From Welwitschia mirabilis (Eukaryota): 52,671 nucleotides of DNA. The notes below the pieces were generated by a model, which did no database searches, had not been told where the DNA came from, and saw nothing but the letters and a program-made list of their open reading frames with translations. Where the stretch lies: NCBI GenBank assembly GCA_051453625.1, contig JBOZIK010000001.1:41499898-41552568 (forward strand). The letters are read 5' to 3'. This document shows, piece by piece, positions 5,712 through 51,100 of this stretch (position 1 is the first letter of the stretch; the number at the start of each line of letters is the position of its first letter). Position numbers and translations under genes: made by a program.

Positions 5712-5755
5712 TTTTTAAAATAAAGTTGGAGGGGCCTTAGGCAATAGCGTCAGTC

Positions 5756-5763
5756 CATAAATA
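5756..5763 (+). promoter_or_regulatory. Putative TATA-like box of the MFS gene
   Basis: CATAAATA about 160 bp upstream of the ATG at 5922. Confidence 0.45.
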
Positions 5764-5921
5764 CGGCATCGCCTCCCTTCGTTTCAGATGTACTACTAGT
5801 GTTGTGTCGAGATAGCAGCAGCAGAGGTGAGCAAAGCGCGAGCTCTGTGTGGTGTGTGTGGAACAGAAGAGAAGCATTATCCGAAATCTTTCTGTGGGTC
5901 TTGTCTTTCGTGCTTTGTGTC

Positions 5922-6260: not shown

Positions 6261-6377
6261 GTAAGAACAAACCTTTTCATGTACAATATTTTTTCTCCTT
6301 CAGAAACATGAACAGATACAGAAAGCCTGGTGAAAGGCACTCAGATTAACGATTGGAAATGAACAAAATGTGGACAG

Positions 6378-7216: not shown

Positions 7217-7305
7217 GTATTGACTTTCGCTCTCCTTCTGTATCTTATCTTTGCCTTGTTTCTTGTTTTTCACAAGACAGATAAACGAATGGGCTGCTGA
7301 AACAG

Positions 7306-21389: not shown

Positions 21390-22500
21390 AACATGTATTT
21401 CAAGCCATTAGATAAGTCTTTAAGTTGAAAATTATTTTCATCCTTCATAGTTGTAGAACACCCATCTTGATGTAAAAGATTTTCAATGAATCTTACATGT
21501 TGAATATCATGATCAAGTATGAGTTTAAAGTCCTTATAAGAATCATTATTGGAAGAGTGGTTTAAAATATTTGGGTTAAGATTGCAAGGATTGGAGGAGT
21601 TTAAAGATTTAAGACTAATAGAATATTCTTCCTCATCCTCAAATAAGGCAGAGTTATGTAATGAAAGGAGCCTTTCTTCTAAAGGATGATGTTGAACTAA
21701 CATGGATGACCTAACTTTTTCTTCTATGTCNNNNNNNNNNNNNNNNNNNNNNNNNNNNNNNNNNNNNNNNNNNNNNNNNNNNNNNNNNNNNNNNNNNNNN
21801 NNNNNNNNNNNNNNNNNNNNNNNNNNNNNNTTATGTAATGAAAGGAGCCTTTCTTCTAAAGGATGATGTTGAACTAACATGGATGACCTAACTTTTTCTT
21901 CTATGTCAAATTCATCTTCCATGTCTTTTTTAGCGGCATTGAATACTTTGATACTAAACTTTTTGTTGTCTATATGAAATTTCATCATCCCTATACGAGT
22001 ACCAATGACATAATGGGTTGTTGCACAAAAGGCTCTTCCTAAAAGTAGAGGGTATCCATCATTATGTTCAACCTCTATAATAACCACATGTATAGTATAG
22101 AAAGCTTTCTCGATTTCAATCACTAAGTCTTTGATTATTCCTATAGGTTTCTTAGTTGATGCATTAGCCAATTCCAACACTATTTTGGTAGGTTTAATTC
22201 TTCTTTCTAATCCAAGCTTTTTACAAATGTGTAAAGGCATAATATTGACCCTTACTCATATGTATATTAGAGCTTTCTTGATTTTTTTTATTTCCTTCTA
22301 AAATAACACCAATATTGGCTGCCCTTGGATCTTTAAAACTTAGGAAATTTCTGAGAAACTAAGTTGGAAAGAGATTGGGAAATGAATACTTTACTTGAAA
22401 TTAGTCTCTTTTATTTTCTTTTCACTAAGTCCTTCCAAATTTTGTTGTACTTGGGATTATCTTAAAGGATCTTCCAAAAGGATAGGTTGATAACAACATC
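21390..22500 (-). pseudogene. Retrotransposon aspartic protease region (family A)
   Basis: MPLHICKKLGL...IKPTKIVLELANASTKKPIGIIKDLVI...YPLLLGRAFCAT...QLKDLSNGLKY. The 530-aa ORF call is inflated by N runs. Confidence 0.85.
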
Positions 22501-23430
22501 ATTCATGATTGCTTTCAAACATTTGTCATAAGTTGGATTGTTCTTTGATCTCTTCAGCCATGGGGTACTCTTATCCTTAGAATGTTGGTTGTTGTTATTG
22601 GATTTATGAAAGTTTAGTTAATCAAGAATTTTAAGATCATCTTCTTGAGGTTTTCCTTTATGGATAGAAGTTGAAAGTTTCTAATGAGGAGTAGTGTTAT
22701 GTCCACTTCTAGTATTAGGATGATTAGGCAAAAGAGAAGAGGAAAAATTTTCAAAAATTTTTAAAGACTTAGGAGTATGTAAACAAGAAATAATAAATGC
22801 AGAATAATCATTGTGCTTAATTTAAATAATTAAAATTTTCTTTCTCACCTTGAGTTCTTAAATTAAAGTTCATCAAATATTCTTTGATTGCTTCATTAAG
22901 AAAATGTCTTTCAAGAGTGTATTTGCTTTTACTACTATGTACCATTACCATGTAAGATCAATTTATATTAAACAAACTTCTTTACATTCAAGTGGCATTA
23001 ATATCCAGGATCGCATAAAGGTGCAAGGAGTAGGATATACCAAAATGAATGTGGCAATTACTTAGATCACATAAAGCACAAAGTATAGGTCAATTTTGTT
23101 AAAAATAATAATCAATATGGTAATCCCCAAGATCACACAAAGTGCAAGGGATAGACCTAATAGATTACTGAATTTAAATATGAATTCTTAAAATTATACT
23201 TAAAAGTAAAGAAAAGAAAATTACCAGAAATAAAAATTATAATTTCCAATAAAGGAAATTAAAGTACATTCCAAATGAAAAATTAAACAATTACTTATAA
23301 ACCAAAAGATAATCAAGAGATTGCAAGTATATCCAAGAGGATAAAATACAAAACTACTCAAATAAACAAATTAAAATGAATTCAAAATACTTACTTAAGT
23401 AATGACAATATTTTTTTTCTCTTTAAGTCT

Positions 23431-23448
23431 TCCCTAGCAATGATGCCA
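23431..23448 (-). other. Primer-binding site, tRNA-Asp type (Athila), deaminated
   Basis: TGGCATCATTGCTAGGGA vs canonical TGGCGCCGTTGCCGGGGA, 3 nt inside the LTR end. Confidence 0.75.
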
Positions 23449-25440
23449 AAATGTCTTGATGCATATTTGTGCTTCTAATTCCAATATTTGAAGGATCGAA
23501 TTTAACTTACAAAATTTGAAAAGATAAATATCTAATTTCACACAATACACATTTGTACAATGGGATCAATCCAAATGTTATACACTTAAAGAAGACTTTC
23601 AAAAGAGAATATGAAAAATTACTTTTATAAAGATAAAATAAATATTTTGAACTTTCACTTTCAAGGAAATAAAATTAAATAATCCAAATATAAATATGGA
23701 ATGTAATGCAATGTCATGAAATGAAATCTAATGTAATGAATGTAGTTCTAATGTAATGAATTAATTAAACTTCTAATCTACTATTACTTAGATTGGTTAT
23801 TATAACCTATTTTAATTATAAATTCATATTACTTAAATTGCAATTAAGATATGTTATAAGAAGGAGTAATAAAACATCTAAAAATATTTCAATTCAATTA
23901 ATACTTTTATTAATGAAATNNNNNNNNNNNNNNNNNNNNNNNNNNNNNNNNNNNNNNNNNNNNNNNNNNNNNNNNNNNNNNNNNNNNNNNNNNNNNNNNN
24001 NNNNNNNNNNNNNNNNNNNTAGAGTACATCCACTTATGACAATAACTTCTCAATGAAAGATCCATTTCCTAACACCAAGGTGATCCTTCTCACAAGTAGG
24101 ATGGATCTCCTTGCATTTAAAAATCTCCAATTATCATAAGAATGTAGATGCAAAAGATGATGTTTAATAGGGTCTGAAAGGGCCTATTTATAGGTTGGGA
24201 TAGGTTGCTAAAAGATGTGAAATAAAGAGGTGTGAGTTAGATCTACCCTTTCATAACAATTTANNNNNNNNNNNNNNNNNNNNNNNNNNNNNNNNNNNNN
24301 NNNNNNNNNNNNNNNNNNNNNNNNNNNNNNNNNNNNNNNNNNNNNNNNNNNNNNNNNNNNNNNTTTGTACTTTTAGTTCCAATATTCTAAAGATCGAATT
24401 AACTTACAACATCTGAAAAGCTAAATATTTAATTACATACAATACACATTTGTATAGTGGGATCAATCCAAATGTCATACACTTAGAGAAGAATTTTGAA
24501 AGATAATGTGAAAAATTGATTTCATAAAGAGAAGAATAACATCTTTTGGAATTTTTCTTTAAAGGAAATAAACCTAGATAATGCAAGATGAAGATGGAAT
24601 GCAATGCAATGGAATGAAATAAAATGCAACTTAATGATTGCAATTCTAATGTAATGAATTAATTAAACTTCCAATCTACTGTCTCTTATATTGATCATTA
24701 TAACCTATTTAAATTACAAATTCATGTCACTTAAATTGCAATTAAGATAAGCTATAAGAAAGAACAATAAAACATCTTAAAATATTTCAATTTAATTAAT
24801 ACTTTTATTAATGAAATTAAAGTACATCCACTTATGACAATAACTTTTCAATAAAAGATTCTCTGCCTAACACCAAGGTGGTCCTTCTAATAAGTAGGAT
24901 ATATCTCTTTGCCTTCAATAATCTTCAATTGTCATAAGAATGTAGATAACGAAGGATGATTTAAATAGGGTCTAAAAGGATCAATTTATAGGTTGGAACA
25001 GGTTACTAAAGGGTGTGAAACAAAGAGGTATAAGTTAGATTCATCCTTTGATAATAATTTAATTAAGTTTTCAAATTATTTTGAGTGTCATCCCCTCATG
25101 TCACTTCTATGACATAGAAGATGACATCCCATCTATCAACTAATACTTACAATGTGTCAAAAATGCTGACTATCATCCTGATCATCATCCCCACAACACA
25201 GAGGATGACTATACTTTTGTGACTATCATCTCCATGATAGTGAGGATGACTAATATATCTTCATCACTTTGCTTTGGTTGATTATTATCCAAAAATGGCT
25301 TCTTATTTGGAATATTATTACATCTTTTGGACTATATGGAAGCTTTGTAAATTTTGCATAAATCCTTGGAAAAACCTATCAATAGGACCTGAAAATGTAC
25401 TCCACAAGTGAATTAAATAGTTCAAGTTGGCATTATAACA

Positions 25441-28000
25441 AAGATGCACAAATTAAGAAAACTAAGATTATACATTTAAGAAATGGAAAAGAACTTAACC
25501 AGAAAATATAAGAAGTAATCATACAAAGAAGAAGAAGTACAATAAAAATAAGCCTAGAAGTAAGAAAAAGGTAGAGATGAAATATGAAGATGAAGAAGTT
25601 GTCTCAACTTTTAAAGAACACCTATCCTTTCCCCAACAACTTAAAAAACTTATTTGGCTAAGAAATAATGAGAAGCACTAAAAGGTTTGAAAGAAGTAAA
25701 GACTAATATTCCTCTTTTATAAGGCATTAAATAAGTGCCTTCCCATGCTAAATTCTTGAAAGATCTATGCACTATTAAAAAAAGGATGAATGTAAAAAGT
25801 AAGTCCTTTTTTGTTTAAAAACTTAGTGCTATTATTCAAAATTAAATTCCCCTAAAATACAAAGATCCTTGATGCCTTAGCATATTATCATCATTATAAA
25901 TACAAACTCTTACCCTATAGTGTATATAAGGAACTTAGTCTAAATTATTTCAAAAATACTAAACTTTAATTATAATTGGTTGATAATTCTTTGAAAGCAC
26001 CATTGAGCATACTAAAAAATGTGATTATTTAAGTAGAAAATTTCTAGTTTCTTGTAGACTTTTTAGTTTTATAAATGGAAAATACTAGAATCTGTACTAG
26101 TTATATTATCCTAGGAAGATCTTTTCTTGATACTTTTAAGGCTCTTATCAATTGTAGAAGTGGTCTTATGAATATCTCTTTTGGTAACATAACTATTGAG
26201 TTGAATCTCTTTAATACCATGAAACAACCTAATGATTTAAAAGGAGTAGAATTTGTTAAAATTCTTGATGATCTTGATTCTTCTCCTATGAGAAAAAATG
26301 TTTTCCTTATTTCTCTATATTCTTTAAATTATGATTTTTATATTAATATTAAAAATAATCCTTTTTTTGTTATAGATTTACCTCTTGAGGATCTAAGATA
26401 TTTCTTTGATGATGATCCTTCTCATCCTTTGATTTCTAATTCATCTATATTTTCATCAAAGAAAAAANNNNNNNNNNCCTTCTTAAGTTTTCAACTCATG
26501 TGTGGAGGCCTTTCATGAAAAATATTTCTAAGTCTAATTTGTCACTTGATCATTATCACTTTGATTGTGAAAACCTAATCATTCAAAAATTTCCCTTTCA
26601 TTCATAAGTATACACCAGCCTTATGAACCTAATTTATTTTTATTAAATGAGCTTGAACTATATTTACCTACTCTAATCTTGGAATGCTTAGATCAAACTA
26701 TGGAAAATCCTCATCTATCGAAGGATGATCTTTTCATTAGAAAAAGGCCTAATCATTTCCTTTTATCTCATCCACACTTTAGCCATTATCACTCATTTAA
26801 ATCAGCTTTAGATAATGCNNNNNNNNNNNNNNNNNNNNNNNNNNNNNNNNNNNNNNNNNNNNNNNNNNNNNNNNNNNNNNNNNNNNNNNNNNNNNNNNNN
26901 NNNNNNNNNNNNNNNNNNACTTTAGCCATTGTCACTCATTTAAATCAGCTTTAGATAATGCTTCATTACCTACATTTCATCCAAGTCTTCCATCATCTTG
27001 TGAGTTCATAAGACTCAGTGATCCTAGTTAATGGTCTTTCCTTTAATCCATGAATAAAAATATCTTTCAACTTTTTAAAGTTGAGTTAAAATTTTATAGG
27101 CTTTTGCTTTTTTATTAGCTAGTCCTTTGAATTTTTGAGTTCCTTATTAAGATTTGCATGAATTTAGAGATCTCTCATTTGGAATCGAGGAAAAATATAG
27201 AGTTTCTTATTTTATGTTGTTTTCTTATTTCAAAGCATTCATGGGGATGAAATCATTTCTCTATTAGGCTATTGAGTCAATGAACCCTTTTAATTTGATA
27301 TAAAAAGGAAAAATATAATAAATAATAAATCAAATAAAAAAAATCTTAAAGCTCTTTTTGCACATTTTTATGGTCATTTTTATTGGGTTTAGTTAACTAC
27401 ATCTGGGCTATTGTGATACATTTATCTACATCGGGGCTATAGATGCTTGCTAGTAATGTAGCACTAAATCATTTTTGTATAACATGTTAAATCTATTATA
27501 AGAAAGTATCACAACAATAAATGCTCAATGTGATTGAACGCTTAAAACTTGAATGTCCATTAAAGAAAAAGGAAAAGGAATGAAATTAATTTGAAATTAG
27601 AGAGATCTTTTATTTTCTTGTTTTGACAATTGAATTTGAGATTCCTTGGCTAGTTGTAAATTCATAAGGATTTACTAATTTATAATTTTCTTTTTTAGTA
27701 AATGATACACCCAAATTTATGTAAATAAATAAAACCACTATATTACCTTTATTTTGTTTCATTTATTCATAATGTTCATAGTACGATTTGTTATTTCATT
27801 CATCCATTTCATCAATTTCCATTCATTTTTGATATCCATATCAAGCCATAATCCTTTGTAATTCCTTTTATGAAAAATCACAATAATAAACATGTTGTGT
27901 TTTTTATGATTTGATCCATCTGCACATGTCTAGATCTAAGATAAAATTGATTTAAACCATTGATAAAATCTAGTCATCCAAGGGTTCTTATTTCATCCAC
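25441..28000 (+). mobile_element. Athila-like host, right part: gag C-terminus, protease, non-coding 3' region (family B)
   Basis: IHLRNGKEL; EVKTNIPLL..I..VPSHAKFLKDLCT; KYKDP; IILGRSFLDTFKALINCRSG. The 3' region is similar to 15.4-16.3 kb. Right boundary approximate. Confidence 0.8.
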
Positions 28001-33720: not shown

Positions 33721-35039
33721 CCTCCAATGTAATCTCTTCATCTTTCATTTTGTTGAAAACTCTATTTTTGCTTGTAAATATGACAATTGATCATTGAAAA
33801 AGAATGAATATAGAGAGTGGAATTTGAAATGATATGCATTTTAAGAGGATCCCTCTTTGCAAGAGTAGTACAAACTACTAACGCAGCCATTTTCAGTGTC
33901 TAAAAACCTCTAAAAATTCCTTTGTTTCTCCAGAGATTCTCATAAGCCTTAAATTGTAATTGCATCTATAGAAAATCTCTCATTTATATGTCAAGTATTT
34001 CAAATATTTATTTCCATTTTTTATGGTCATTACCAGATTTATCACTTGTAAAATTATTCATCAATTTACCATGTGAAGTTTTCTTAAACTGGTTATCACA
34101 AGATTATTATTAACCATTCTCATCTTAATTTGCAATCCTAGTCCTTCACTAACTATCATATTAGTGAAATAGCCATGGTCCATAGAAAAGAGCATTTATA
34201 ATGAAATTAAATAATAATTTAAACATGAATTTACACACTATGTTGTAGAAGGGTCTAAGTGTTTTTGTATTTTCTTGCATTTCATATTAGGACTATGCTA
34301 GTGTGAGTGCTCAATTTCACTTTGCATTTGATTTTTATGCAAATTAGCTATTATCTTCACTCTTAGATAACGTGAATAAGTAAATTTGCTAGAGACAATA
34401 TAGTACAACTATGAACAAGGTAGTGAATAAAGAAAGTTACATTGGTAATAATGGTGGTGGATGAAATCAATGCATATATGAGAGGTATGTCATGATGAAA
34501 CCAAATATTTAAGGGAAAATGTGGTCATATGATTGATAAAAATGAAGGATAATTGAAGGTTTTCTAAGTTCATGAAGGGTAAATGTAATTGTACATTTTA
34601 ATGATAACTTTGATTGCATGGGCTTTTATTTTTAGAATTCAATCTAAGATTTCTATAGATACATTAATGGTGCCATTTTTGATTTTTACCATAATGCAAA
34701 CTCCTAACAAAACTTTTCCATTTTAGGTTTTTAAGAAAAAAAAGGAGTTAGAATGTGTTATACCCAATAGCGCTGTGATGAGTTAAGTCATTACACTTGA
34801 GTTGATTGGTGATAGGGAGACAAGTTACATCATCATACCTACATGAACATAAATATAATAATATTGTGACCTTAAGGACATTAAGATAAATCTAATATTC
34901 AAGGTATAAATACCAATAAACCCCCTTAACATTAAGGTCACAATTTATTTTATGTGAAAAGAAGTAGGAAGAAAGAAAGAGAGTGTTGGAATTTTAACTA
35001 ATGCAACAATAACATGTCCTATAATAGATGAAATACTAC

Positions 35040-36045
35040 CATCTCTCAACCTTAATGTCAAGGATATTCAACTAATCACAAAGTAACTCAAATCTACTTT
35101 TGCCTAATACCTTTATAAATAAGTGTGCAAGCTATGCAAGTGATGAACAATAGTATACAAAAACTAAGCCATCCTTCACTTTTGCATGAATAAAATGATA
35201 CCTGATGTCAATGTGTTTTGTACATGCATCTAGAATTAGATTCTTGGTGATGGCAATTGCTGATAAATTATTAGAGTGTAGTGTAATTAGAAAATGAACT
35301 AAAATAAAAAACTTAAAAAATAAACTTTCAAGCCATACAATTTGTTGACATGCTAAATGAATTACCATGTACTCTACTTTAGCTATTGCAGTGCCATACT
35401 TAACTGCTTTTTACTACACCAAGAGATCAAACAATCATCAAGAAGCATTATGTAACCTATTGTACTTTTCCTATTATTAAGACAACCTATCTAATTTTCA
35501 TCCACAAGCCCTATCAATTGGATATTATTATTAGATTCATAGAATAAACTATAATGTAATGTGCCTTTCACATATTTCAGTAATCTTTTAATGTGCATGT
35601 TTAGGGGCATTCATAAATTATGAAGCAATACTTATAGCAAATTAAATATCTTAGTTAACTACATTAAACTTTCAATCATATAATAATATAAACATTTATC
35701 AACTAAATGACTATCCATATCTTTAGTTAAATTTACATTTGTATCCATTGGAGTAGAGATTAGTTTACATTTATGCATTTCAAATTTTTGAAGCATGTCA
35801 TGTGCATATTTGTATTGGTTTAGGAAGATTCCATTAGAGAGTTGATGAATTATAATTTCAAGATAATAAGAGAGCAAGCCAAGTTTAGTTATTTCAAATT
35901 CATAATTCATCTCATTATGAAATTATTTAATCAAAAAATCATGTGTTCCTCCAAATATAATATCATTAACATAAATTAATATAAATATGATATGATTGTT
36001 GATAATTTTTAGATAAAAAGTATTTTCAAAGGAACATTTTTTTCA
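35040..36045 (-). mobile_element. Ty1/Copia RT-RNaseH remnant
   Basis: EFEITKLGLLSYYLEIIIHQLSNGIFLNQYKYAHDMLQKFEM..CK.ISTPM and NLSAIAITKN.....TKHIDIRYHFI; purine tract downstream near 35040-35055. Confidence 0.9.
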
Positions 36046-36383
36046 TAAGAACGATTTCTAAGATATAAAGTATTTTCATAAGAACGATTTCTATAGCCTT
36101 CATTCAATTCATGTACGGTTCCTTGAATATTTTCTTGTATGATTTATCACCTTCATTCAATTCTTGTATGACTTATGATCTTCATTCAATTCTTGCATTT
36201 CTCTCTATTATCATGATTTGTATTCCTTAAAAGCTTGGTTATTTCGTATTTTATCAAAAGCTTATAATTTCTGTACATAATTCAAATTTCATGTTTTTCC
36301 TTCTCTATCTTGACCATCCCCATCATGTTTTGAGCTAGTGACCATTTGTTTACTAGTAGCTAGAATATAATTTGGGTGGCTAA

Positions 36384-36570
36384 ATAATATATTTTCCTAG
36401 AGAGTAAAGAGGTAAAAATTTCCCCCTTCTAGGTGTATTGATTAGATTTTAATAATTCCTCTAGAGAATAAACGAGTAAATTATCCCCTTTGGAGATGTA
36501 TATGTGAGATTCCAAATTACAATAATTCCTCCAGAGAATAAAGGGGTAAATTATCCCCTCTAGAGATGTG
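36384..36570. repeat. Three ~67-70-bp tandem units with palindromic core
   Basis: AATAATTCCTCYAGAGAATAAAGGGGTAAATTATCCCCTCTAGAGATGT-like units at ~36384, 36451 and 36521. Confidence 0.75.
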
Positions 36571-37166
36571 TAACTATGTAAATTGAAAATGTAGTTGAGC
36601 ATATTTTGCAATGCACTTTGGATTGTTGAAAGTAAATCTTGAATTGTTGGCCTTGCATTATTGATTTGTCTTGGTCACATATTGATCTTCTATGAGAAAC
36701 CCTTCATTGTCCTTAAAAACTTTCCCTTTCCACCTAAGCCTTACCATGGACTACACTAGGGATTGTGATGATTTCACAATTCTCATATCATATTATATAT
36801 GCAAGTTAGATACTAACATGGATTCTAGTTATAGAGAAAGAAGTACTTGTTGCTAATGGATTGGAATACTTTGTTACTATTTCATGATTTATGTATTTGT
36901 ACTTATAATCTGTGAAAAAATACTATGATTGTAAATTTTTCTATAAATGATATGTAAACATTGAAATTCTATTGTTATCCTCTAAAGCTATTTATGATTT
37001 GACTTATTCTTCAACATTTTATTATCATGGGTAATTGTCTTCTTATAATAAAATTTTGTTATTATATTAAGTTATGTTTTAAAGCATGATAAAATTTTAA
37101 TCTAGTACACAATAGTGATGAGAAGCATTGCAAAAATTGCATTAGGTAATGTTCATAGTTTTGGGC

Positions 37167-37345
37167 TAAAATTAGGATATTACAATTTGGTATCAAAGTG
37201 CCTAGGTTTTGATTTTCTCTGGGCATAATTGTCATGAAGCCATTAAACTTTCAGTGTGAAATTCAGGCCATTACAATTTAGTATCAGAGTGCGTAGGTTT
37301 TGATTTTCTTTGGTGTGATTATCGTGAAGCCATTAAACTTTTCAA
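37167..37345 (+). repeat. Tandem 91-bp duplication of an LTR 3' end plus tRNA-iMet PBS
   Basis: TTACA-ATT-TGGTATCAAAG at 37188 and TTACA-ATT-TAGTATCAGAG at 37279, with duplicated downstream flank. Confidence 0.75.
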
Positions 37346-37914
37346 CATCAAGCATAGGTTGTGATTTGGCCACGCCAATTTGATTTAACATCTAATCTCA
37401 AAGTATTCAATTTCTTGCTTATATGCCTTGTAAGACCATTGATGCAAGGTGTTTTCTTAGAATCTCAAGCATAGTATGTTATCTATTTCTTGATTGTAAG
37501 TCATTCTTAGTAGGAAAGTAGTCCCAAGATTCAAAACAAGAATCTTTCTGGCTTAATTAGAAATGGTGTTAAACTATTATAGATCACGCTTTGCTCTAAT
37601 AATAGTAAAGTTAATGATACTAATCAATTAAAAATGATGTTAAATTATTATAGATGAGTTCTAGGTCTTCACAATATTATTGAATTTACAGTCCAACTAT
37701 GTGCATAGGAGAAAAATCTAAAACATACTGACCGCATCACCAAAGATAAATAAATACCAACTACCTAATATAAATAAGAGAATATCATCATCATATAATG
37801 CTTATGATTTACACTGATGGCTAACAATCATACAAGAATGATGGAGCCAATAGAAATGGATGTCCATGTCCACTGATGCATATCCTTGTCACTAATAAAT
37901 TTTCTCAAATAATA

Positions 37915-39983
37915 ATCTTAATAAGCCATTAATCATTAGTTTTCAACTTTACCCTTTCCAAGAAAAAGCCTTACTTAATCCTATGATTAAGCTAGTAATC
38001 AAGGACAAAATTGTTAAACTTATAGATACAAGTCAATTCATGCTTTGGTATAATACATGAGTACATCTTATCCATAGTAAGTTAACCTCTAAATGGCTTT
38101 GTCCTTATTATGCAAAAAGAATACATTCTAATGGATCTATTGAGATCAATGACCTTCAAACTCATGAAATCCAAAAAGTAAATGGTTAGAGGTTAAAACT
38201 TTATACATCTCTAGGTAATTGTTCTTATACCTTGAACATAATAGAAGAAATTAACTTGGAAGATCCCCTTTGTAGGAAGGAGGATCTCCCCTTGATCATC
38301 TACTAAATCATTTCTTATTCTTATTCCTAACTAAGTTATAATACTACTTAATCCTCTTTAACTTGATTTATGTTTAACTTTCATAGGTATTACCATGATT
38401 AAGTAATTCTTTACTTTGGGTTTTCATGTGATAAAGATTGGATTCAGTTAATCTTAAGATATTCCAATATNNNNNNNNNNNNNNNNNNNNNNNNNNNNNN
38501 NNNNNNNNNNNNNNNNNNNNNNNNNNNNNNNNNNNNNNNNNNNNNNNNNNNNNNNNNNNNNNNNNNNNNNGATTGAATTCAGCCAATATTAAGATATTCT
38601 AATATCTACAATCAATCTCCTTGGTTATTTTATGGCAAAATATCAACTATGTTAATCTGATGCTTATTTTTAACCATATACTTTGTTACTTCATTATTTC
38701 ATTAATTAATCAATGATTTTCAAAATGGGAGTCTCAGTCAATGGAAAAGAACCAAAAAATTGAAAAACAAGAGGAAAATATGAGTGAGTGTGTGTGTGTG
38801 TGTNNNNNNNNNNNNNNNNNNNNNNNNNNNNNNNNNNNNNNNNNNNNNNNNNNNNNNNNNNNNNNNNNNNNNNNNNNNNNNNNNNNNNNNNNNNNNNNNN
38901 NNNNNNNNNNNNNNNNNATAACCCTCTTGTAATTATACCATAATGTACTATTGCAAGTCTATTGAGGTAATTTTTTTTGAGAGGGGTCTTGGCAGTATGA
39001 TATGATAACTATGGAAAATCCACCAGATGATTAATGGATTATGATCTAGCTTTGGCTTCTAGGTCCTTATTCTCTTGCTAGTGGTTACACTCCTCTTATC
39101 ATGATGAATGGTGTTATTCAACACCCTATTGACTAAAACATACCATCACTTCAAGGAACAAAATTTGTGAGCCTGTGAGTATATTGATCATTAGATGATA
39201 TCTCATCAAAGTNNNNNNNNNNNNNNNNNNNNNNNNNNNNNNNNNNNNNNNNNNNNNNNNNNNNNNNNNNNNNNNNNNNNNNNNNNNNNNNNNNNNNNNN
39301 NNNNNNNNNNNNTAATGTACTATCACAAGTATATTGAGGTAATTTTTTTTGAAAGGGGTCTTGGCAGTATGATATGATAACTATGGAAAATCCACTAGAT
39401 GAGTAATGGATCATGATCTAGCTTTGGCTTCTGGGTCGTTATTCTCTTGGTAGTGGTTACACTCCTCTTATCATGATGAATGGTATTATTCAACACCCTA
39501 TTGACTAAAAAATACCATCACTTCAAGGCACAAAATTTGTGAGCCTGTGAGTATATTGGTCATTAGATGATATCTTATCAAAGTACTATGATTATCATAG
39601 TTGAAGAGGAATGAATTATAGTCCAAACATGACTTGGTCCATTGCTAAACATAATTATTAGATATTATCATCATTACTATACTTTCAAATGGTACTCTAT
39701 GGTATTCTACATTGAATCATGCATTTCGAAATGAAGTAACTTTATAACCTTTACCAAGAAGTTTTGCTAAGTTTGAATTTTATACAAATATTTAATCTTC
39801 TTCATGTTTTATATTGTTTATTTTTCTTTTTGTTTTATCTTAGTTTGTTGATTTGCCTTTTCAAAGCCATTTTTCTCACCTTTTTCAAAATAATGCTTAG
39901 GACTTTATCATTTTTTAGTCTACTTATTACATTTTTTATCACTTAATTATTATGCATAAAATTAAATTAACCTCTATCTTGGT
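37915..39983 (+). mobile_element. Family A internal region, copy 2 (fused RT-lead/integrase tail and 3' non-coding region)
   Basis: Colinear with 40320..41890 and the inverted homolog of 19840..20693; ends in an N gap. Confidence 0.8.
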
Positions 39984-40083
39984 NNNNNNNNNNNNNNNNN
40001 NNNNNNNNNNNNNNNNNNNNNNNNNNNNNNNNNNNNNNNNNNNNNNNNNNNNNNNNNNNNNNNNNNNNNNNNNNNNNNNNNNN

Positions 40084-42294
40084 TTAAACTCCTCTAATCC
40101 TTACAACCTCAACTAAAATATCTTAAACCACTCTTTTAATGATGATCCTCATGAGAATTTCAAACCCATAATTGACCATGATATTCAACATATAAGATCC
40201 ATTGAAAATCGTTTACATCAAGGTGGGTGTTCTACAACTATGAAGAATGAAAATAATCTTCTACTTAAATACTTATCCAATGATTTTAAATATATTTTCT
40301 TAAATAAAATTTCTAATAAGTCATTGATCATTAGTTATCAACTTCATCCTTCGAAAGAAAAAGCCTTGATTAAACTTCTCACTTTAAAATTATAAGCTTT
40401 TTCTTAGACTCATAAATATCTTAGTGCTATTCTTTCTAATATTGTTTAATATAAAATTTACTTACAAATAATTTTAGATCCAATAGACAACCTCAAAAAG
40501 ACTTAATCCTCTCATTCAGTGAGTAGTCAAGGACAAAAATAATTAAACTTATGGAGACAAGTCAATTCATGCTTTTTAATAATACTTGAGTATGCTTATA
40601 CATAACCAGTTAATCTCTAAATGGCTTGGTCCTTATCATGTGAAAACAATACATTCCAATGGATCTATTAAGATCTCTGATGTTCAATCTCAAGAAATAA
40701 AAAAAGTAAATGGATAAAGGTTAAAACTTTATACATCTCTAGATCATTGTTCTTATACCTTGAACATGATAGAAGCAAATAACTTGGAATCCTCTTTGAA
40801 AAAATGAAGATCTTTTCTTGGCCATCTACTAAATTATTTTTTAGCTTTATTCCTTGGTTTAAGTTATGATATTACTTGATCATCTTTAAATTGATTATTT
40901 TTTACTTCTATACATGCTACGATGATAAAGTAATTCTTTACTTTGGTTTTTCATGTAATAAAGATTGGATTCAGTCAACCTTAAGGTATTCCAATATCTA
41001 CAGTCAATCTCTTTGGTTATTTTATGGTAAAATATCAATTATTTAATCTAATACTTATTTTTAGTTACATACTTTATTACTTCATCATTTCAATGATTAA
41101 TCAATGCTTTTAAAAATGGGAGTATAACTCAATAAAAAAGAACAAAAAAATAAAAAGCAAGAGAGAAATATTAAAAAGGAAAAAGGAAAATAAATCAACT
41201 CTTGCAATTGTACCATGAAATAAGATTGCAAGTGTTCTAAGAAAAATTTTCCTAAGAGGGGCCTTTGGTAGTATAATATAGTAGCTGTGGAAACTTCATT
41301 AGATGATTAGTTGACCATGACTTAGCTTTGGCTTATGGGTACTTATTCTCTTAATAGTGGTTTCACTCCCCTTATCATGATGAATGGCATTATATAACAC
41401 CCCATTAGCTAAAAAATCCCATCAATCCAAGGCATAAACTTTATAAGAATGTGAGTATATTGATCATTGGATGATATCATATCAAAGTACTATGGTTGTC
41501 ATAGCTAAAGAGGGATTGAATTATAGCCAAAATATAACTTAATACTTTGACAAAAATAACAATTAGATTTTATCATCATCACTGCCCTTTCAAATAGTAC
41601 TCTATGATGTTCTACATTAAATCATGTATTTCTATATCAACTAGCTTTATTACCTCTACCAAAAAGTATTACTAAGTTTGAATTATGGGCAAAAAGTTAG
41701 TCTTCTTCATGTCCTGTCATGTTCATTTTTCATTTTGTTTTATCTTAGTTTGTTGGTTTGCCTTATTAAAGTTATTTTTCTCACCTTTTCCAAAATAAGC
41801 CCTAGGACTTCATCATTTTCTAGTCTACTTATTACATTTTTTATCACTTAATTATTATGCATAAAATTAAATTGACCTCTATCTTGGTCATCCTTTAGCA
41901 TGATAGTATTGATGCTTTCCTTTCCTTTAATCTTCTTCCTTTTTACAACCTCTCCTATTACTTAACCTTGTAATCATGAAATCTTACCCTGGTTTACCTT
42001 TCCTTCATGATTTCTAAAACTTGAGATGACTTACTCATTTAGTTCAGGGGAATAGATACCTATATTACATGTTTTATGAGCCAAAAATTTTTATCAAATA
42101 TATGCTATGATATTAAACTAATGATTGATAATATACATTTGTTTCACTTGTGATTTTTCATAGGTTTGGTGTATTTTACATGTTGTAGTCTTAATTCTAA
42201 TGATATACATGTTTTAAATTTTCTTTTATTAGTTACCTCACAACTTGTTATTCATTTATTTTATCAAGGATTAATAAATGCTAAGTGGGGGTTA
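40084..42294 (+). mobile_element. Family A internal region, copy 3
   Basis: Post-protease linker (homolog of 21390..21603), LKY.FL...LIIS..L, RLNPLIQ.VVKD...KL, then integrase tail WLGPY...KVNG.RLKLY; PPT AAGTGGGGGTTA ending 42294. Confidence 0.85.
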
Positions 42295-43383
42295 TGTTAT
42301 GATGTTAGACCTATTTAATACATTTGTGGAGTACATTTTCAGGTATTATTAATAGGTTTTTTTAGGGATTATGAAAATTATGTAAAGCTTTTATACAAGT
42401 AAAAATATGCAATAATTTCCAACATTAAAAGCTTTTTTTGTATGACGATGGACCAAAGAAACTTGATCAACATGATATGATCATCCTCTAGGTCATGAGG
42501 ATAACAGAGGAGATGACAGTCACAATAGTATGGTCGTCCACTATGTTATGGGAATGACAATCAGGATGACAATCAGCATAATCAACATGTGTGGGGCATC
42601 AGTTGATCATCATCTATGTCATGGGGACAACATATGGTACAAAAGTTAAAATCATTTATAAAGTCAATTAAATTATTATGAAAGGGTGTATTTAACTTGT
42701 ATCTCTTCCTTTCACACTCCTTAATGACATTTAACCATTTATTATAACCTATAAATAGACTCTTTTAGACCCTATTTAAAATCATCTTTTTTCATCTACA
42801 TTCTTACGATGATTGAAGATTATTAAAGGTAAGAAGATCCATCCTACTTATGAAAACGACTACTTTAATGTTAGGCAGAGAATCTTCCATTGGGAAGTTG
42901 CTACTGTAAGTGGATCTAATTTAATTTTATTAATGAAAATATTTATTGAATTGAAACTATTTTTAAATGTTTTATTACTCTTTCTTATAGCTTATCTTAA
43001 TTGCAATTTAAGTAACATGAATTCATAATTAAAATAGATCATAGGAACCTATCTAGTGATAGTAGAATGGAAATTTAGTTAATTCATTACATTAGAATTG
43101 CACTCATTTTACATTTCATTTCATTCGATTGCATTGCATTTCATATTCATCCTTACATTATTTAATTTTAATTCTTATAAAGCAAAGTTCAAAAATATAT
43201 TATTCTTCTCTTTATGAAAGCAATTTTCCAAATTCTCTTTTAAAATTCTTCTCTAAGTATATGACATTTGGGTTGATCCCACTATACAAATGTGTATTGT
43301 GTGCAATTATATTATTAGCTTTCTAGATGTTCAAGTTAAATTCAATATTTATAACATTGGAAGCACAAATAAGCATTGCAATA
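42295..43383 (+). mobile_element. Family A 3' LTR (1089 bp)
   Basis: TGTTATGATG...GCATTGCAATA directly after the PPT; inverted homolog of 24364..25440 and 18563..19502. Confidence 0.85.
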
Positions 43384-45144
43384 ATGCTCTTAGTCATTTT
43401 TATAGGCAAAGATAAGGAGGAAGTAGTTGGGTTTCTTTGGCTTATAGTAGTATATGAAGTGGATACAATTCTATCCTATAGTACTAGGTGGAGTGATTAA
43501 GAATTCTTATCCTATAGCATTAGGTAAAATCTTCATCATGTAGTGTTAGATAGAATGGTAAGGATTCCTATTATGTGGATTTAAGTGGAATCTTCATCAC
43601 ATAGCATTAGGTGGAAAATCATCATAATAGTTTCAATATATGGCCTTAAGTCTAGATGCTTTTAACTAACTCTATCACCATGTGTGCTGATGCCACTACC
43701 ATGTGTCATTATTGCAAGTCATTACCACTTCACTTCCATGTCATTGTTATGTGTTTATCACATCATTACCATGAGGTTCTAGTGTCATTGTCATGTGTCA
43801 CTGAAGATCACAACTTACTAGAATGTAGTAACTCATAAGGCCATCAAATGTAATTTAAATTTAACTCCATGGTGAATTTAGTAGGTGGGCTTAAAGGCAT
43901 TTTCTCAAAAATGATGAGCATTGCCATACATAAATACCAGCACTATTAGTGTTTTTTGTAGGATTTCCTTCTTCTTTTGCATCATGTTCCATTATCTCAT
44001 TAAGTGCCTAAATTTATCATGGAAAAGTACATAATTTCATAATTGACATTAAAATTAATAAGAGATATAATTTTATGATAAAATACTTAATTTAATATCT
44101 TCCTTGAGCTAAATTGAACTGAAATACTTGATTTCAATATTAATTTTTAAATATTATCACACCACCTAACTAGAATTTTTCTAGAGTCTTAGTCTGAATT
44201 GTGATAAAAGATGATTAACATAAAAATCCTATAGTAAAAATATTCAAGGATGTAGGAATGATAAAAACTTTGAAAATTTTTTGACCAATTTTTGAAAAAA
44301 AAAAAACTAAGGAATTTTTTCAAAAATGTGAATGTCACACCCCTAACTAAAATCAAACTTTATGCATAAAGTTTTTAAGATAGAATTACATGAAAAATTT
44401 GATAAAAAGTTAATGAAACCTTAAAAGGAATATTATTCATTTCATATTACTTTATTGTAAATAGAAAAGATAAAAATACAAAGTACTTAAATCTAAGCTA
44501 TGATTCAGTGAAAGGTCATTTCACAATAAAAACAATTATGCCTTTTGGGTGTTTTTCCTCTTGTGATGGGGGTGGAGTGAAAATGATAATATATAGTAGT
44601 AAAATGAATGCAAATGAATTGAATGATAATGCAACTAAAACTTTACTATGCATGCTACAAATAAATGAGACTATGAAACTAAGGTAATGGCCTAGAAAAT
44701 ATTTATTTAATTATGGATCTAAGTTAAAACAAGGAAAGACATTAATAAAGTAAATTCATGCAAATTAATATTAGTAAAAACACCTTTAGTGATAAATGTT
44801 AAAATAAGTNNNNNNNNNNNNNNNNNNNNNNNNNNNNNNNNNNNNNNNNNNNNNNNNNNNNNNNNNNNNNNNNNNNNNNNNNNNNNNNNNNNNNNNNNNN
44901 NNNNNNNNNAACAAGGCATTCATGCAAATTAATATTAATAAAAAGACCTTTAGTGATAAATGTTAAAATAAGTAATTCACAAGAAGTCTCTAATTTCATC
45001 TTAAGGTCTTTTCAATTTTTACCATTCTATAATTACAAGTGATATCCTTTAAGCATTTAATCATATTGTATATTCAATGTTGTAGCACATCTTTCAATAG
45101 AGTTAAACATGTTGTTCATAAAGATGTTACTGCTGCATTTCTAG
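43384..45144 (-). mobile_element. Family-B-like 3' internal region, PPT and 5' portion of LTR (LTR 44159..43384)
   Basis: Minus strand TAGTTAGGTGGTG then TGATAATATTTAAAAATT; similar to 15850..17300; TATA CCTATAAAAA just before the break at 43384. Confidence 0.65.
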
Positions 45145-45145
45145 T

Positions 45146-48100
45146 CGTTACATGCAAAACGTAACATTTACATTGAGTAATTAAGATCTCATTAGTATGA
45201 TTAATTAATTATAATGATAGTTTTATATATTTATTATGCTTAAGGTTATGGAAACCAGTTTTACTTATAATCCACCTTAATATTATTGTTTCCAAGGATA
45301 AATGTATCATTATAGGCATTGTGATAGAAGATGGACAAGTGTTGAGCATAATTATCAGTAGCACTAATTCTAGGAGTAGAAACACCAATTACTTTAATTA
45401 AAATAGTACCAAACTCACATTATTAAGTTCTCTTAATGCAAGTAATACATTCTGTTCATTTCTACAAATAGGATATGAACAAGGAACATTTTCTAAGAAT
45501 AATCCCTTAATTTGATCTAATGCCTAAAAAATAATCTCATACATTTTGGGCATTTTTTAAAATAACTATGTTATACCTTTGAATGCTTATTATAAATCCT
45601 AATTCTGACCTATAACTACTTGATCTTGCTTCACTATCAAATCATTATATCATTATTAGAGAAATTGGCATTTTAATCATGCATTCCTTTTAAGCCTTCC
45701 ATAGGGGTGGTAGCACTAACCTAGCATGACGATTTTTGGTTTATCATGAGTACATTATTAAATCATATAATTTTACTTTTTAGATAGTAAAAAGTTACAT
45801 GTTCTTGATGTATTACTTTTATATTAAGATGTGATTTTTTCATACTTGTTATTCTTAAGATTAACTAAGGCATGCTTTTACTTTAAGATTGATCTAGTGA
45901 TTATCTTTTTCATTTTATCTTGCATAACCTAAATGTTTATTTGATGGATCTTAAGAGACCCCTACTTGTTATACATATTTTATTTTTGCTATGAATACCA
46001 GGTGACTTAAATATATTACCCTCATTTCTATGATGAATGAGATTATGCCATTGTGTTTGTCCTTGGACTATATGAGCACTTATATTTATGATGGATGAGA
46101 TTATGCCACTTTACTTAAATTGAAAGTAAAATCTACATGATCACTTTAGCACTTATGTTTTTTCATGAAATTGTTATGCTAATTTGAATGTTATGTCTCA
46201 TTCCTAGATATCTCATATCATTTTACTCTCTATTACTCATTCTTTTTTGTATGCTTTAATGATAGATTTTAAAATCTATCGCTATAAAAGAATGACATTG
46301 GGACTATACTATAAATAGAAGTCCTACCATTATTACTAAAATTTATATTTAACTACATAAAATTTATATCCCTAGGATGATCTTGATATTTACCATACGT
46401 TAACAACAAATACAAGTGTGGCTAGACTTCGCCACAAATAGCTTTTTGGTGTCATTGCAGGGAATAGTAATATAGTAGATACAGTCGATCATGCATAAAA
46501 TCTACAATTGCATAGCCTTTTTAGTTTTTGATTTTTTCTCTTTTTCCTTTTATTCTTTTATACTAGTCTTTTTTAATTCCTTTTTTTTTTTATTTTTATC
46601 ACCAGAGGATTGGTGTTGATTATGCCTAGTACTTGATAGACAGAATGCAATCTAGTGACCTCTTTTCTTTTTATTTTTATTTTCTTATTTTTCTTTCATT
46701 TTTTAGTTTTTTTCCTTTATTTATTTGTAAAGATTATATAGTATATCGAATTTTCTTGTAGGATTGATCTTTTATAGGTTTAAAGAAAAGGAAATCAAGA
46801 AAAAATAATAATTTTTTTCTTCTATTCATTTTCTTTCTCTACAATCTCTTCTCTATTATCTCTTCCCTTTTCTATCTTATATGACTTCCTTAGTAGGTAC
46901 TTGAAGATAATTTCTGAATGAGGACTTCATTAGTAAAATTCTTAAGGAAGTGATTTAGTACTTGTATTATTTATGTCTACAACTTTATTTCTTTCATGAC
47001 ATTACATTGTGATTTTCATTTTGCATTATCCCTTCTTGGAATATGCATTTAGTCATTTTTGGTTAGTTAACTAAATTAATCTATCATCTTAGACTATTAT
47101 CTTTTTTTGATATCTTTACTGTCATTTTTTTAAAAACATCTTTATGTCATCTTACTAGTACCACTATCTTCCCTTATTTGCACTACTGGATTCTTGTGTT
47201 AAACTATTTTTAACTTTTGTAAAACTTATGTTTATAACATCTTGAACATTTTTGCATATCGTGTGCATCAAGAAACATAACTCATTTTAAATATTTTATT
47301 AAATTTTATAAATTAGAAATGAACATGTGATGGTAGATTGCATTAAATCTCTCTTAATTCTGAAATGTAAAGAAACCTTAAAAACTAGTTTTAAGAAATA
47401 CCTTAAGAAAGTTAAAACAACTCTAGAAGTAACTTTAACATTAACCAACCTATAAGAAAATTGAAATAATATCTTAAACCATAATATCTAAGTATATCCT
47501 CTTATATTGTTCAATTCTAAATGCTGAGAAAATTGAATTTAAATAATTACTTATTAAACTTATCTCATATTTTCATGATTTAGACTCTAAGAATCCTTTG
47601 TTTGCATCTTAAGGATTTTAGTATATTCTTTTAACAATCCCTTAAAATCCTGATACATCCAATGCCCTTATATTAATCTTGTTTCATTTTTTCCTTATAA
47701 AGAAGGTAAAATCTTGGCTTTATACATTAAAGCCTATTTTCATTACTACTTAGGCTAAACTTAATTAAGCATTCATTAGAAAATTTTTGTCTAGTTATAA
47801 GACTAGTGCCATTAGAAGAGAAATCATGAACACCTAATAAAAGAATAGTAAAATCTCTTCCTACATATTATAAATATTTAAAGATTCACTTCTTAAATTC
47901 TCACGACATGATTTTAAACTAAGAAAAGTTATAAATTTCTTTTATAAAGGACTTTTATTTAACTATAGGTAATTTGTGGAGATGATGGGTAGAGAAAGCT
48001 TTCTAGACCTGGAGATTGATAAAGCTAATAATTTTCTTGAGACTATACCAAAAGCTCTAAGAATTGAAAGAAACCTAATGAGCCAACAAGATTATAACAA

Positions 48101-51100
48101 CATGATAAGTCCACTAGTATCTTCAAAATTCCTGACAACAATGAAGTCAACCAAAAATTGGATGATATTTCTAAGAAGATTGAGACTCTTGATATAATCC
48201 TAAGTTCATAATTCTACCTCTTCATTGCAACCTTTATTTTGTAAATACTTATGAAACCTAATATTTTCCATCTACTCCCATGTTCTAAGGAGTAGTGAAA
48301 GAACAAATTAATGTTATAGGACAATAATGATAAAACCAAAAAAGAAAACAACTCCTACTCTAATACCTCTATCCTAGATGCAAAAATATGCAAATTTCTT
48401 ATGGAAGTAATATAATCCTAGACATGCCCTAACTATCCAACCTAAGAGTACAAATCCTCCATCAACTTCTAAGTCTTTAAAGGCTACATTTCATAAGTTC
48501 ATGGAAGCTCAATATCATATTAATAACTTACAATAACAATTTAATAAACAAACCTCTTCCATGTTTTAAAAGTTAGAGTAAGGAATGCAACAATTAGAAC
48601 AAACCATCATACATATCCTCACATCACTCAATCAACATGAGAAGGTGATGAAGTAGAAATTTTGAATAAAATAAGGTATTAATAATTAATATTTTACATT
48701 ACTTTTTAAACTTTAATACTGCATTTACAAGAATGTTTTTACTTTTTAGATGATAGGGATCTTGAACATAAAATGAGCTTAAAATAATGTATTATGATCT
48801 AATAAGATTCTTTTCATGATGCTTATGATTAGAATTTTAAGATTGAGGATGAAGATGTAGATCATGGATGACTACTTCAATATAAAAATTTGATAGATGA
48901 TTCATAGTCCTTTTTCCAGCATCATATATCATCCTCTTCCTGATGCAATGATTTTGAATCATTCTAACACTAGATGCATAACATGGAATAACATCAAAAC
49001 CTTTTAATATATCAATACCTTACAAAATTACATTTCAAAAACTATAATTTGTATATTTATAGCTATTGTAATGGATTCATGTATTGTAAGCTTTAAGAGA
49101 TAAACTTAGGTCAGTTTTATTTTTGGATTTTTTGAAGTTATTTATGAAACTACATATGATGCTATAGTGTCAATTCAAAGAGTAAAATGATGCTACAGTT
49201 CCATGTGATAGTGTTTCCTAGAAACTCATGAATCACATGTGAATTCACACTAGATTTAATAGATCCTCAACTTACAACTGATCCTATTATGCCTTTAAAG
49301 ATCATCTTCAGTGTCGATACCAAAATTACATCATAATAACATCATTATTATGCTATTTTTATGCCAATTTTTTCATTCTAAAGCATTAGAAGAATATTTT
49401 CTATCATTTTTCCCTCATTTTTCTTCATTTACAAGTTAATCTTCTCTCTATATCAACTTTGAAAACCTTCTGCATTCCTCATTCACATATTTTTCATTTA
49501 ATAAAGACCATTTTTAGCCTTTTAAACCCTTTTATAATCTATTTTTCATCATCTTTTCTTCCATTTCCATCTATCCAGGGGGGATTATAGGGGTAGTGAA
49601 GTACATGTGATTAGGTAGTGTAGGAGGAGAAGAAGCCATCAAATATTATAAGCAATTATGTAGAAGATTAATGAAAAGGGCCATGAATTCATCTAAAATT
49701 AATAAGTATTTATTACTTTATGTTTTTGTACTTTTAATTACTTGATTTATGCATTTATATCATAAAGTTCTTTCTTAATTTTTGCATGTATGTCATGAAT
49801 TTCTTTCAATTTAGTTAAACCTTTTATAGCTTATATCATAATTAGTACTAATTAGATTATGGAACAATTACTACCTATCCTAACAATATGAAATTTTGCA
49901 TGTTTGATGATTCTTTGTCAAATAAATCATATGTTTTATTCTTCTTCTTGCTTCTTTCCTCCATTCTTTTCATTTCGTAATACATTTCTCATAATTCCAC
50001 CTTTCTTCTAAGGCAATTAATAGTGAATTTCTATTTTCTCCTTTCTAATAGTAGTAGATTAATTTGTAAATATGTGCTTTATATTATCTAAGATTTAAAT
50101 TTTTTTATCTATAAATTCATATCTTTTCTTTCTTATTTTTAAAATTAAAGTGAAATAGTTAATTTGAATGCTTGTTTTAGTCATAACTTATTTTTGTAAC
50201 TTTAATAATTCTAAAGTTTTATTTGTAGCTTTCTCTCATGATTTAGAAACTTTCTACCTCAAGGAGTCAAAACCAAAATTCATATGTAAAAACTCCATTT
50301 TTTGCCATTTTTAGTATTAGTTGCAGTTTTACTTAGGAAAATTTCTAAACTATTAAATCTCTCTTTTTTTTTTTTTTTAAATAGTGAATTTCTTAGTCAC
50401 TTTTAGCATGCTTTCAAAAATTCAAGATTCTATCTTATAGTATTTCTTAATTAATTTTATAATATGAAATTTGATTTTTATTTAGTTTTATAGTTTTGTT
50501 AATATTCTTAGTCAAAATAGGGTTGACTATAATTTTTACCAATTTTTTAGATGAACTGTTTTTTTTTTAAGTTATAATCAATTATACTTAAATCTTGACT
50601 AGTGGTTATAGAAACTTGTTTTATNNNNNNNNNNNNNNNNNNNNNNNNNNNNNNNNNNNNNNNNNNNNNNNNNNNNNNNNNNNNNNNNNNNNNNNNNNNN
50701 NNNNNNNNNNNNNNNNNNNNNNNNGATTATAATTTTTGCCAATTTTTTAGATTAATTGTTTTTTTTCAGTTGTAATCAATTCTACTTAAATCTTGACTAG
50801 TGGTTATAGAAACTTGTTTTATGGCATATTATAAGTATTTTAAAGGTTTTAAGACTTTCTAAGTTCATTCTTTTGAATTTTCTCTCTCCCTTTTCTCTTT
50901 CTTCTTCATTTTATCTCTTTTTGCTAAAAAAATAACTTGAAATAAGTAAGTATTACTTTGATATCATGAACATTCATATGCTAGTTTTTGACAATTTTCT
51001 ATTGATTTGAATCTTGATTTTAATATTCTAATGCTTTTATAATTCAATTTGTGCTTAGTAAAGACTGATATTTTACTAAAATATAATGTAATCTAGCAAA

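Follow-up and report, generated by a model that had tools for sequence, protein, structure and literature searches.

The window analysed here, 52,671 nucleotides (nt) of contig JBOZIK010000001.1 of Welwitschia mirabilis, contains decayed copies of a gypsy-type long terminal repeat (LTR) retrotransposon that probably belongs to the Athila lineage and has lost the central part of pol. In copy A (37917-38216, plus strand), a single frame leads through the linker between protease and reverse transcriptase (RT) and the RT lead-in (LNPMIKLVIKDKIVKL) directly into the C-terminal GPY/F tail of integrase. From 37917 this frame has two stops and no frameshift, and it continues as far as the natural terminus of pol; the translation of 37980-38216 is identical, with both stops, to the string that a preliminary description of this DNA had reported at 37980..38210. 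Copy B lies in tandem with copy A, 2.5 kb away, and copy C, which has the plan of a full element, lies 17 kb off on the other strand beside a further LTR (LTR D).

To gather reference proteins, the protease-linker frame that is open in copy C (21392-22255, minus strand) was used as the query of an exhaustive phmmer search. At E<=1e-3 this returned 4694 relatives, with a best value of 7.8e-22, all of them plant gypsy-type gene models. From these, 150 representatives were used for tblastn and profile comparisons; none is a clean full-length polyprotein, and the deletion size used for this family is the literature figure of ~3.1 kb. Two hidden Markov models were built, one for the linker and RT start (10 sequences) and one for the integrase tail (7 sequences), with the reversed window as control. 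Two sets of DNA contigs, X1 and X5 (organism labels A and B), and two sets of RNA reads, X14 and X17, were compared with 37400-38470 at >=80% likeness. Copy A comprises the following features (an asterisk marks a stop):

37868-37978, plus strand: remnant of the protease-RT linker (..IFSNNNLNKPLIISFQLYPFQEKALL), at positions 13-38 of the linker profile
37978-37979, plus strand: site of a 126-nt deletion, A subtype, relative to copy B 40374-40499; flanks AAAAAG(C/A)CTT in the alignment
37979-38036, plus strand: RT lead-in LNPMIKLVIKDKIVKLIDTSQ, at positions 79-103 of the linker profile ('sqRRlnpkikevvkkevlklLdagl')
38016-38036, plus strand: breakpoint zone KLIDTSQ, to which both the linker and the tail profile align
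38037-38275, plus strand: integrase GPY/F tail to the end of pol (FMLWYNT*VHL..SKWLCPY..KVNG*RLKLY..NLEDPL), from tblastn and the tail profile
38058-38060, plus strand: in-frame TGA, common to copy B
38187-38189, plus strand: in-frame TAG (TAA in copy B, CAA in most of the family)
38276-39983, plus strand: non-coding 3' internal region broken by N gaps, matching copy B 40963-41888 at 78-84%

Copy A is truncated on its 5' side near 37870-37894, with the protease entirely absent, and ends 3' in a gap before an LTR is reached. At the truncation, word depth climbs from <140 to >3000, and 49 contigs per DNA run go on 5' of 37894 with other sequence (QLKDLPNGL), unlike copy A. Both stops had been explained as single C-to-T changes, from CGA and CAG. 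For the second, the direction of change stands, C being the commonest base of the family at 38187 (15589/18078 of the depth in X1, 16597/30836 in X5), but 38189 reads A, so that the family codon is CAA (Gln) and not CAG. A derivation of the TGA from CGA is plausible; no T>C at 38058 appears among the variants listed for X1 and X5.

Copy B shares the junction. Its segment 40289-40997 is 82% identical to 37894-38470, and the window contains two exact matches to an 18-mer that spans the junction, at 38028-38045 and at 40557-40574, where a recurrence at ~40562 had been noticed before; two or more matches were found in 0 of 100 shuffles. In copy B the lead-in and the tail share one frame and the intervening 20 codons lie in another, so that the join, in frame in copy A as had been claimed, is in frame in copy B only after a +1 and a -1 indel flanking the junction are allowed for. 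Copy B also keeps the 126 nt of linker (40374-40499) that copy A lacks; that deletion occurs in at least one other genomic copy, a contig of X1 (record 7) that aligns with 37899-38112 with 0 gaps. The 5' part of copy B is lost in a gap (39984-40083), and what follows is:

40084-40565, plus strand: linker (LKYLSNDFKYIFLNKISNKSLIISYQL..) and RT lead-in (RQPQ / KRLNPLIQXVVKDK / IIKLMETSQ, divided among three frames), linker profile 4.4e-7
40557-40574, plus strand: junction 18-mer, identical to 38028-38045
40575-40777, plus strand: integrase tail (tail profile at 40601-40735, tblastn at 40595-40777)
40778-42294, plus strand: 3' internal region without recognisable domain (Pfam, 3 frames, 0 families)
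42283-42291, plus strand: purine tract AAGTGGGGG, placed by motif position and alignment
42295-43386, plus strand: 3' LTR of ~1.09 kb, starting TGTTATGATG, where homology to C and D begins

Where the RT lead-in meets the integrase tail

The two flanks of the junction were assigned by profile. The tail profile matched copy A at 38019-38207 (independent E-value 5.3e-15) and copy B at 40601-40735 (1.8e-11), with a best value of 1.7 in the reversed window; the linker profile matched copy B at 40264-40482 (4.4e-7) and copy A at 37959-38177 (7e-4), with a best value of 1.1 in the control. In copy A the lead-in consensus 'sqRRlnpkikevvkkevlklLdagl' aligns over EKALLNPMIKLVIKDKIVKLIDTSQ, and the tail consensus 'KnFekgqrvllydsrLhlfPgkLksrwsgpf..kvngqrlkeyl' over KLIDTSQFMLWYNTXVHLIHSKLTSKWLCPY..KVNGXRLKLYT. 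By tblastn, residues 235-323 of the relative P0144 match 37995-38270 (E 2e-15), and since this match extends to the C-terminus of the protein (..LEDPVYQD), the tail of copy A reaches the natural end of pol. These results bear out the flank identities first proposed from the letters, an RT lead-in and an integrase C-terminus.

What lies between the flanks in complete elements can be read from the relatives. In P0137 the motif KLLDAGMIYPISDSPWVSP stands at ~975-1000 and the Pfam RVT_1 domain begins at 1017, and the order of domains in P0090, P0126 and P0137 is lead-in, RVT_1, RNase H, Integrase_H2C2/rve and tail. The missing part therefore consists of RT, RNase H and the zinc and core domains of integrase. 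Loss of this part from an Athila-type pol in one step, as had been suggested, is supported. When the 150 representatives were compared with the window by tblastn (E<=1e-4), six regions were matched, 4 of protease type and 2 of integrase tail; no match to RT, RNase H or integrase core was found.

The breakpoint cannot be assigned to one shared glycine, as first described, but only to a position within the seven codons KLIDTSQ (38016-38036), which both parental profiles claim, as 'klLdagl' of the RT lead-in and as 'KnFekgq' of integrase. Contigs with an intact integrase (39 in X1, 23 in X5) read ..FEPSQLVLL before 38049, so the integrase parent may have contributed the Ser-Gln at the junction. 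The parental sites are alike in following the pattern K-x-hydrophobic-acidic-x-G, and with the join inside similar motifs the frame is kept automatically.

A reading of LNPMIKLVIKDK as integrase only was rejected, given that copy B has an RQPQ / KRLNP plus HKI.LE-like stretch of RT lead-in upstream. Word-indexed protein searches were negative, both for the fusion peptide (37 candidates, 0 at E<=10) and for the copy C protease (423 candidates, 0 accepted), and Pfam found nothing relevant in 36801-38300.

Copies C and D and their surroundings

Copy C, on the minus strand, shows the plan of the full element: an LTR pair, a primer-binding site (PBS), a pre-protease, protease and linker region, a gap, a 3' internal region and a purine tract. 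LTR D, of the same family, lies head to tail with the 5' LTR of copy C, 84% alike, with only a gap between them; the pair may represent copy C with a neighbouring solo LTR, or else a tandem element that has recombined.

24364-25440, minus strand: LTR D, beside the 5' LTR of copy C
23452-24263, minus strand: 5' LTR of copy C, cut by gaps, 87% identical to its own 3' LTR over 462 nt
23436-23448, minus strand: PBS TGGCATCATTGCT, 3 nt (TTT) past the LTR end, of Athila Asp/Asn type with four transitions
21390-22608, minus strand: pre-protease, protease and linker, the frame being open over 22255-21390 (phmmer relatives)
20695-21389, minus strand: gap of 695 N over the expected junction
18560-19515, minus strand: purine tract (19515-19506) and 3' LTR (19502 to ~18560)

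The LTRs of copy C are 87% identical, so the insertion is old. Its catalytic motif has decayed as well: the protease reads ALIYI*VRVNIM where relatives have ALLDLGASVNLL, so that DLG has become YI*, with loss of the catalytic aspartate and glycine. The distance across the gap, 718 nt compared with 833 nt in copy B, fits the deleted form. Between the PBS and the pre-protease lie ~830 nt without recognisable domain (Pfam). In three frames of this leader Pfam found 0 families. For copy C it gave neither gag (PF03732) nor a protease family, and the protease is seen only by phmmer against relatives; decay may explain the missing matches.

Several features bear on the lineage. The reference Athila PBS motif of Asp/Asn type is TGGCGCCGTTGCC; when the pattern was made degenerate for transitions, the copy C PBS was its sole match in the window, and a search of the window for the exact motif with <=3 mismatches matched only in a GC-rich gene. 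In the available part of its source, this motif, complementary to tRNA-Asp/Asn, is validated for Brassicaceae only (bioRxiv 10.64898/2026.03.20.713144). The copy B LTR, at ~1.09 kb, exceeds the 1 kb taken as an Athila criterion. The LTR ends are decayed, with ..AAGACA in the copy C 5' LTR and ..CAACAATA and ..CAATAATG in the 3' LTRs; the terminal pentamer TATCA of Athila LTRs is defined for Brassicaceae only. One relative, P0021, carries the Pfam ATHILA ORF-1 domain (PF03078), which Pfam did not find downstream of pol in three frames of copy B 40740-42300. Protease, linker and integrase tail are homologous to the polyproteins of plant non-chromovirus gypsy elements, a likeness that does not discriminate Athila from Tat, Ogre or Retand.

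The window is part of a draft scaffold with 17 N runs. Its GC content is mostly 0.17-0.32 and reaches 0.46-0.50 at 4-8 kb, where a transporter gene lies; the repeats have 0.25-0.31. Self-comparison shows the remainder to be a mosaic of diverged repeats. Two gaps of 100 N each, at 21731-21830 and 39213-39312, have duplicated sequence on both sides: the first is flanked on either side by the same 25 residues (DIEEKVRSSMLVQHHPLEERLLSLH), and beside the second 38941-39212 and 39313-39584 match at 94%. The duplicated flanks look like unresolved contig overlaps or haplotypes rather than biology. The neighbouring features are:

5748-6311, 6363-7223 and 7301-7804, plus strand: open frames of the three exons of a nodulin-like/NFD4 major-facilitator transporter gene (5748-7804; Pfam PF06813, E 5.5e-46, and PF23262), with repeats of ~0.27 GC around it
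~35746-36042, minus strand: RVT_2 domain, in one frame (Pfam E 3.2e-14), of a decayed Ty1/copia element that spans ~34000-36400, close on the 5' side of the truncated copy A; an open frame resembling RNase H comes next, at 35132-35410
14474-15342, 25672-26434 and 47514-48140, plus strand: protease remnants of a second gypsy-type family
1964-2165, 36397-36572, 37169-37341 and 50525-50822: short tandem duplications of local extent, each unit measuring ~65-100 nt, at 74-91% identity

The best named relatives of the NFD4-like gene are from gymnosperms (Araucaria, Wollemia, Ginkgo, Cryptomeria, Taxus), at <=66% identity. The second gypsy-type family retains ALLDLGVSVN at 14722-15012; open-frame, tblastn and profile searches found no RT, linker or integrase tail downstream of its proteases. 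The whole window thus holds 4 gypsy remnants that bear a protease and 0 gypsy RTs.

Origin, spread and decay of the deleted form

We favour, with a probability of about 0.8, the reading in which the copies are old and heavily mutated remnants of a non-autonomous Ty3/gypsy LTR retrotransposon of the Athila lineage, which lost part of pol once, was copied in trans and has decayed neutrally. The anatomy of the copies, the junction that they share, the further contigs that carry it and the absence of any sign of constraint all point this way. A single internal deletion would have fused the codons immediately preceding the RT core with the C-terminal (GPY/F) domain of integrase, taking out RT, RNase H and the zinc finger and catalytic core of integrase. 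The join may have been made by a homology-assisted template switch or by recombination within the seven-codon stretch of likeness, and similar parental sites would explain why the frame was retained without selection. The deleted element would have kept its LTRs, PBS and polypurine tract and been mobilised in trans by autonomous relatives, presumably before a sub-lineage shed the additional 126 nt. Since then, neutral decay, for the most part through C-to-T changes in a genome strongly depleted of GC, would have affected all visible copies.

The family extends well beyond the window. Along 37400-38470 the word depth, when summed, lies between 13 and 140 as far as 37867 and between 2,300 and 100,000 from 37904 onwards; in the bin of the junction it is 2329 in X1 and 4316 in X5, against ~7 for contigs identical to the locus (records 4 and 9), sums that indicate a very abundant family and are not copy numbers. 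Contigs identical to 37415-37660 and 37415-37691 are held by both DNA runs, so their organism labels stand for very close relatives or the same taxon. At least three contigs, of ~83-85% identity, bridge the junction: record 7 of X1, a contig of 217 nt that covers 37899-38112 without a gap, with 33 differences in 214 nt, and crosses both the site of the 126-nt deletion and the junction, and records 12 and 13 of X5. Together with the gap length of copy C, they support the existence of the deleted form outside copies A and B. These contigs also bear on the alternative that the junction arose once here and spread only by local or segmental duplication, not by retrotransposition. The tandem arrangement of copies A and B on one scaffold would suit such a history, and their target-site duplications could not be examined. 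Record 7, however, has the structure of copy A but differs from it at 33 of 214 nt, and the X5 contigs bridge the junction too; copy C stands 17 kb away on the other strand with LTRs and a PBS of its own and a gap length that fits the deleted form; and depth near the junction is ~190-330 times that of a single-copy contig (again as depth sums, not copy numbers). We consider spread by duplication quite improbable.

A further possibility, put forward in the preliminary description, is that the fusion of protease, linker and integrase tail acts, or once acted, as a protein under selection, which would enter helper particles or interfere with them. In its favour, copy A keeps the frame across the join; the ratio of non-synonymous to synonymous rates (dN/dS) between copies A and B is 0.60 (Nei-Gojobori; 74 codons, 4 skipped; 9.5 synonymous and 23.5 non-synonymous differences); and gag and env frames of pol-less Athila elements in Arabidopsis are reported, in the accessible part of that study, to be under purifying selection (PMC2410132). 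The ratio rests on 33 differences, however, and by a rough reckoning is not distinguishable from neutrality, that is, from 1. Coding sequence has diverged as much as non-coding sequence: copies A and B are identical at 198/237 positions (83.5%) in the fusion frame and at 208/251 (82.9%) in the non-coding flank downstream. A frame would be kept by chance in 1 of 3 deletions, and is expected here anyway from the similar motifs. The TGA is shared by A and B, the protease is missing from A, and its active site is destroyed in C. RNA was negligible: 14 of 12,546,805 records matched in X14 (0 at >=99% identity, 1 at 95-99%, 2 at 90-95% and 11 at <90%) and 1 of 11,053,536 in X17, and a search of public runs gave no RNA run among the holders listed. 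Nothing thus points to a working protease-integrase-tail protein in the visible copies; the functional idea is not supported, and a selected fusion seems very improbable.

Gene models from other plants bear on the same question. By tblastn, 7 of the 150 representatives match the copy A tail; by profile, the tail is present in 15, the linker in 51 and the two together in 9. Six of the seven tail-matching models are short and pass from protease or linker to tail without RVT_1, five of them being from Morus notabilis, Vitis vinifera, Juglans, Cajanus cajan and Vicia villosa and the sixth being P0144; the seventh, P0126 from Vitis piasezkii, is a mosaic that keeps fragments of RNase H and integrase core. 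Such RT-less models could be taken to speak for a coding fusion, but each has a different junction, with no common hotspot at the level of residues; deletions that occurred independently, or mosaics made by annotation, may account for them. Short 'protease plus integrase-tail' models in Morus, Vitis, Juglans, Cajanus and Vicia should be annotated with caution, as probably being remnants of this kind or mosaics. It also seems unlikely, if worth stating, that the shared motif (KLLDAG before the RT core; K(N/S)FE(P/K)G before GPY/F) is the 'conserved recombination hotspot' to which the recurring ~3 kb loss of pol sequence in mutually unrelated Athila families has been ascribed, and that it has recurrently yielded an in-frame derivative across seed plants, from the gymnosperm-like host of the window to Brassicaceae, initially coding for a protease-integrase-C-terminal-domain protein that rode on or poisoned its helper.

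Similar skips from protease to integrase tail in gene models of five eudicot genera might suggest that the missing segment was spliced like an intron from genomic RNA that was then reverse-transcribed, and where codons for Ala-Gly precede one for Ile, the sequence can look like a splice donor. The junctions of the gene models differ, however, from one another and from this one; no donor site was seen, the parental nucleotide sequence on the RT side being lacking; and the integrase-side consensus, joined at its AG, gives the wrong frame (checked by hand). We regard splicing as most improbable. A chimeric contig join is a practically negligible explanation: the scaffold has 17 N gaps, some of them flanked by duplicated sequence, but the junction lies in gap-free sequence of two diverged copies and is bridged by contigs of independent runs under two organism labels.

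Some points weigh against a once-deleted, trans-mobilised Athila derivative. No copy in the window has an RT, which makes an RT-based lineage assignment impossible, and with no gag detected in copy C the family may be more reduced than the published gag-protease type. The count of bridging contigs, at least three, comes from the pieces listed, beside which there are 11,325 further pieces; intact elements whose contigs break off at the junction may account for part of the depth near it. Copies A and B, neighbours on a gap-rich draft scaffold, could go back to one local duplication, with the junction of copy C unseen and target-site duplications beyond checking on these copies. Finally, a dN/dS of 0.60, though non-significant, does not exclude past constraint.

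Comparison with known pol-less elements

Large retrotransposon derivatives (LARDs) and the Dasheng/RIRE2 elements are internally deleted LTR elements that keep their cis signals and have their proteins supplied in trans. The internal regions of LARDs are defined as non-coding, whereas here recognisable remnants of protease, linker and integrase tail allow the deletion to be dated and to be located on pol.

The pol deletion is real and belongs to a kind already published, the pol-less Athila. In Arabidopsis, most Athila families are described in the available part of one report as lacking pol and being mobilised in trans (Marco & Marin 2008, PMC2410132). The likeness to the present family is that whole pol-less families are there mobilised by other families; the difference, as far as that text extends, is that those elements keep an intact gag and sometimes an env under purifying selection, whereas no intact open reading frame or constraint is seen here. 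Closer still in structure is a deletion of ~3 kb covering RT, RNase H and integrase, which is abundant in non-autonomous intact ATHILA elements of A. thaliana and is credited, in the portion available of a recent preprint, to Wlodzimierz et al. 2023 (bioRxiv 10.64898/2026.03.20.713144). According to the same portion, gag-protease-only elements are the commonest class in six Brassicaceae, with 934 of 2,322 intact elements and a mean length reduction of 3,102 bp, and the ATHILA-specific open reading frame, present in only about a quarter of elements, is not obligatory (bioRxiv 10.64898/2026.03.20.713144). As in those elements, the LTRs, a PBS of Asp/Asn type, the polypurine tract and the protease side are kept, RT, RNase H and integrase were lost by one internal deletion, and the family is abundant. 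The present family differs in its host, a GC-poor seed plant with gymnosperm-like genes; in the state of its copies, which are old and decayed rather than intact; in the ~80 codons of integrase tail kept in frame; and in the lack of a gag domain found in copy C.

For the Welwitschia genome, 10,589 non-autonomous LTR copies have been counted, and the GC content of its transposable elements, ~29%, has been attributed to deamination of methylated cytosines (PMC8275611). Abundance and GC-poor repeats are common to that set and to the family in the window; in the accessible part of that account the non-autonomous elements are defined by having 'no domains', and no pol breakpoints are described. Otherwise an ordinary dead transposon, the element adds to the published kind a join mapped within two similar motifs, a retained integrase tail and a host far from Brassicaceae. 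Through the similar motifs, an in-frame deletion finds a simple explanation that needs no selection, and pol-less Athila derivatives, until now described mainly by length and domain content, gain a mapped breakpoint.

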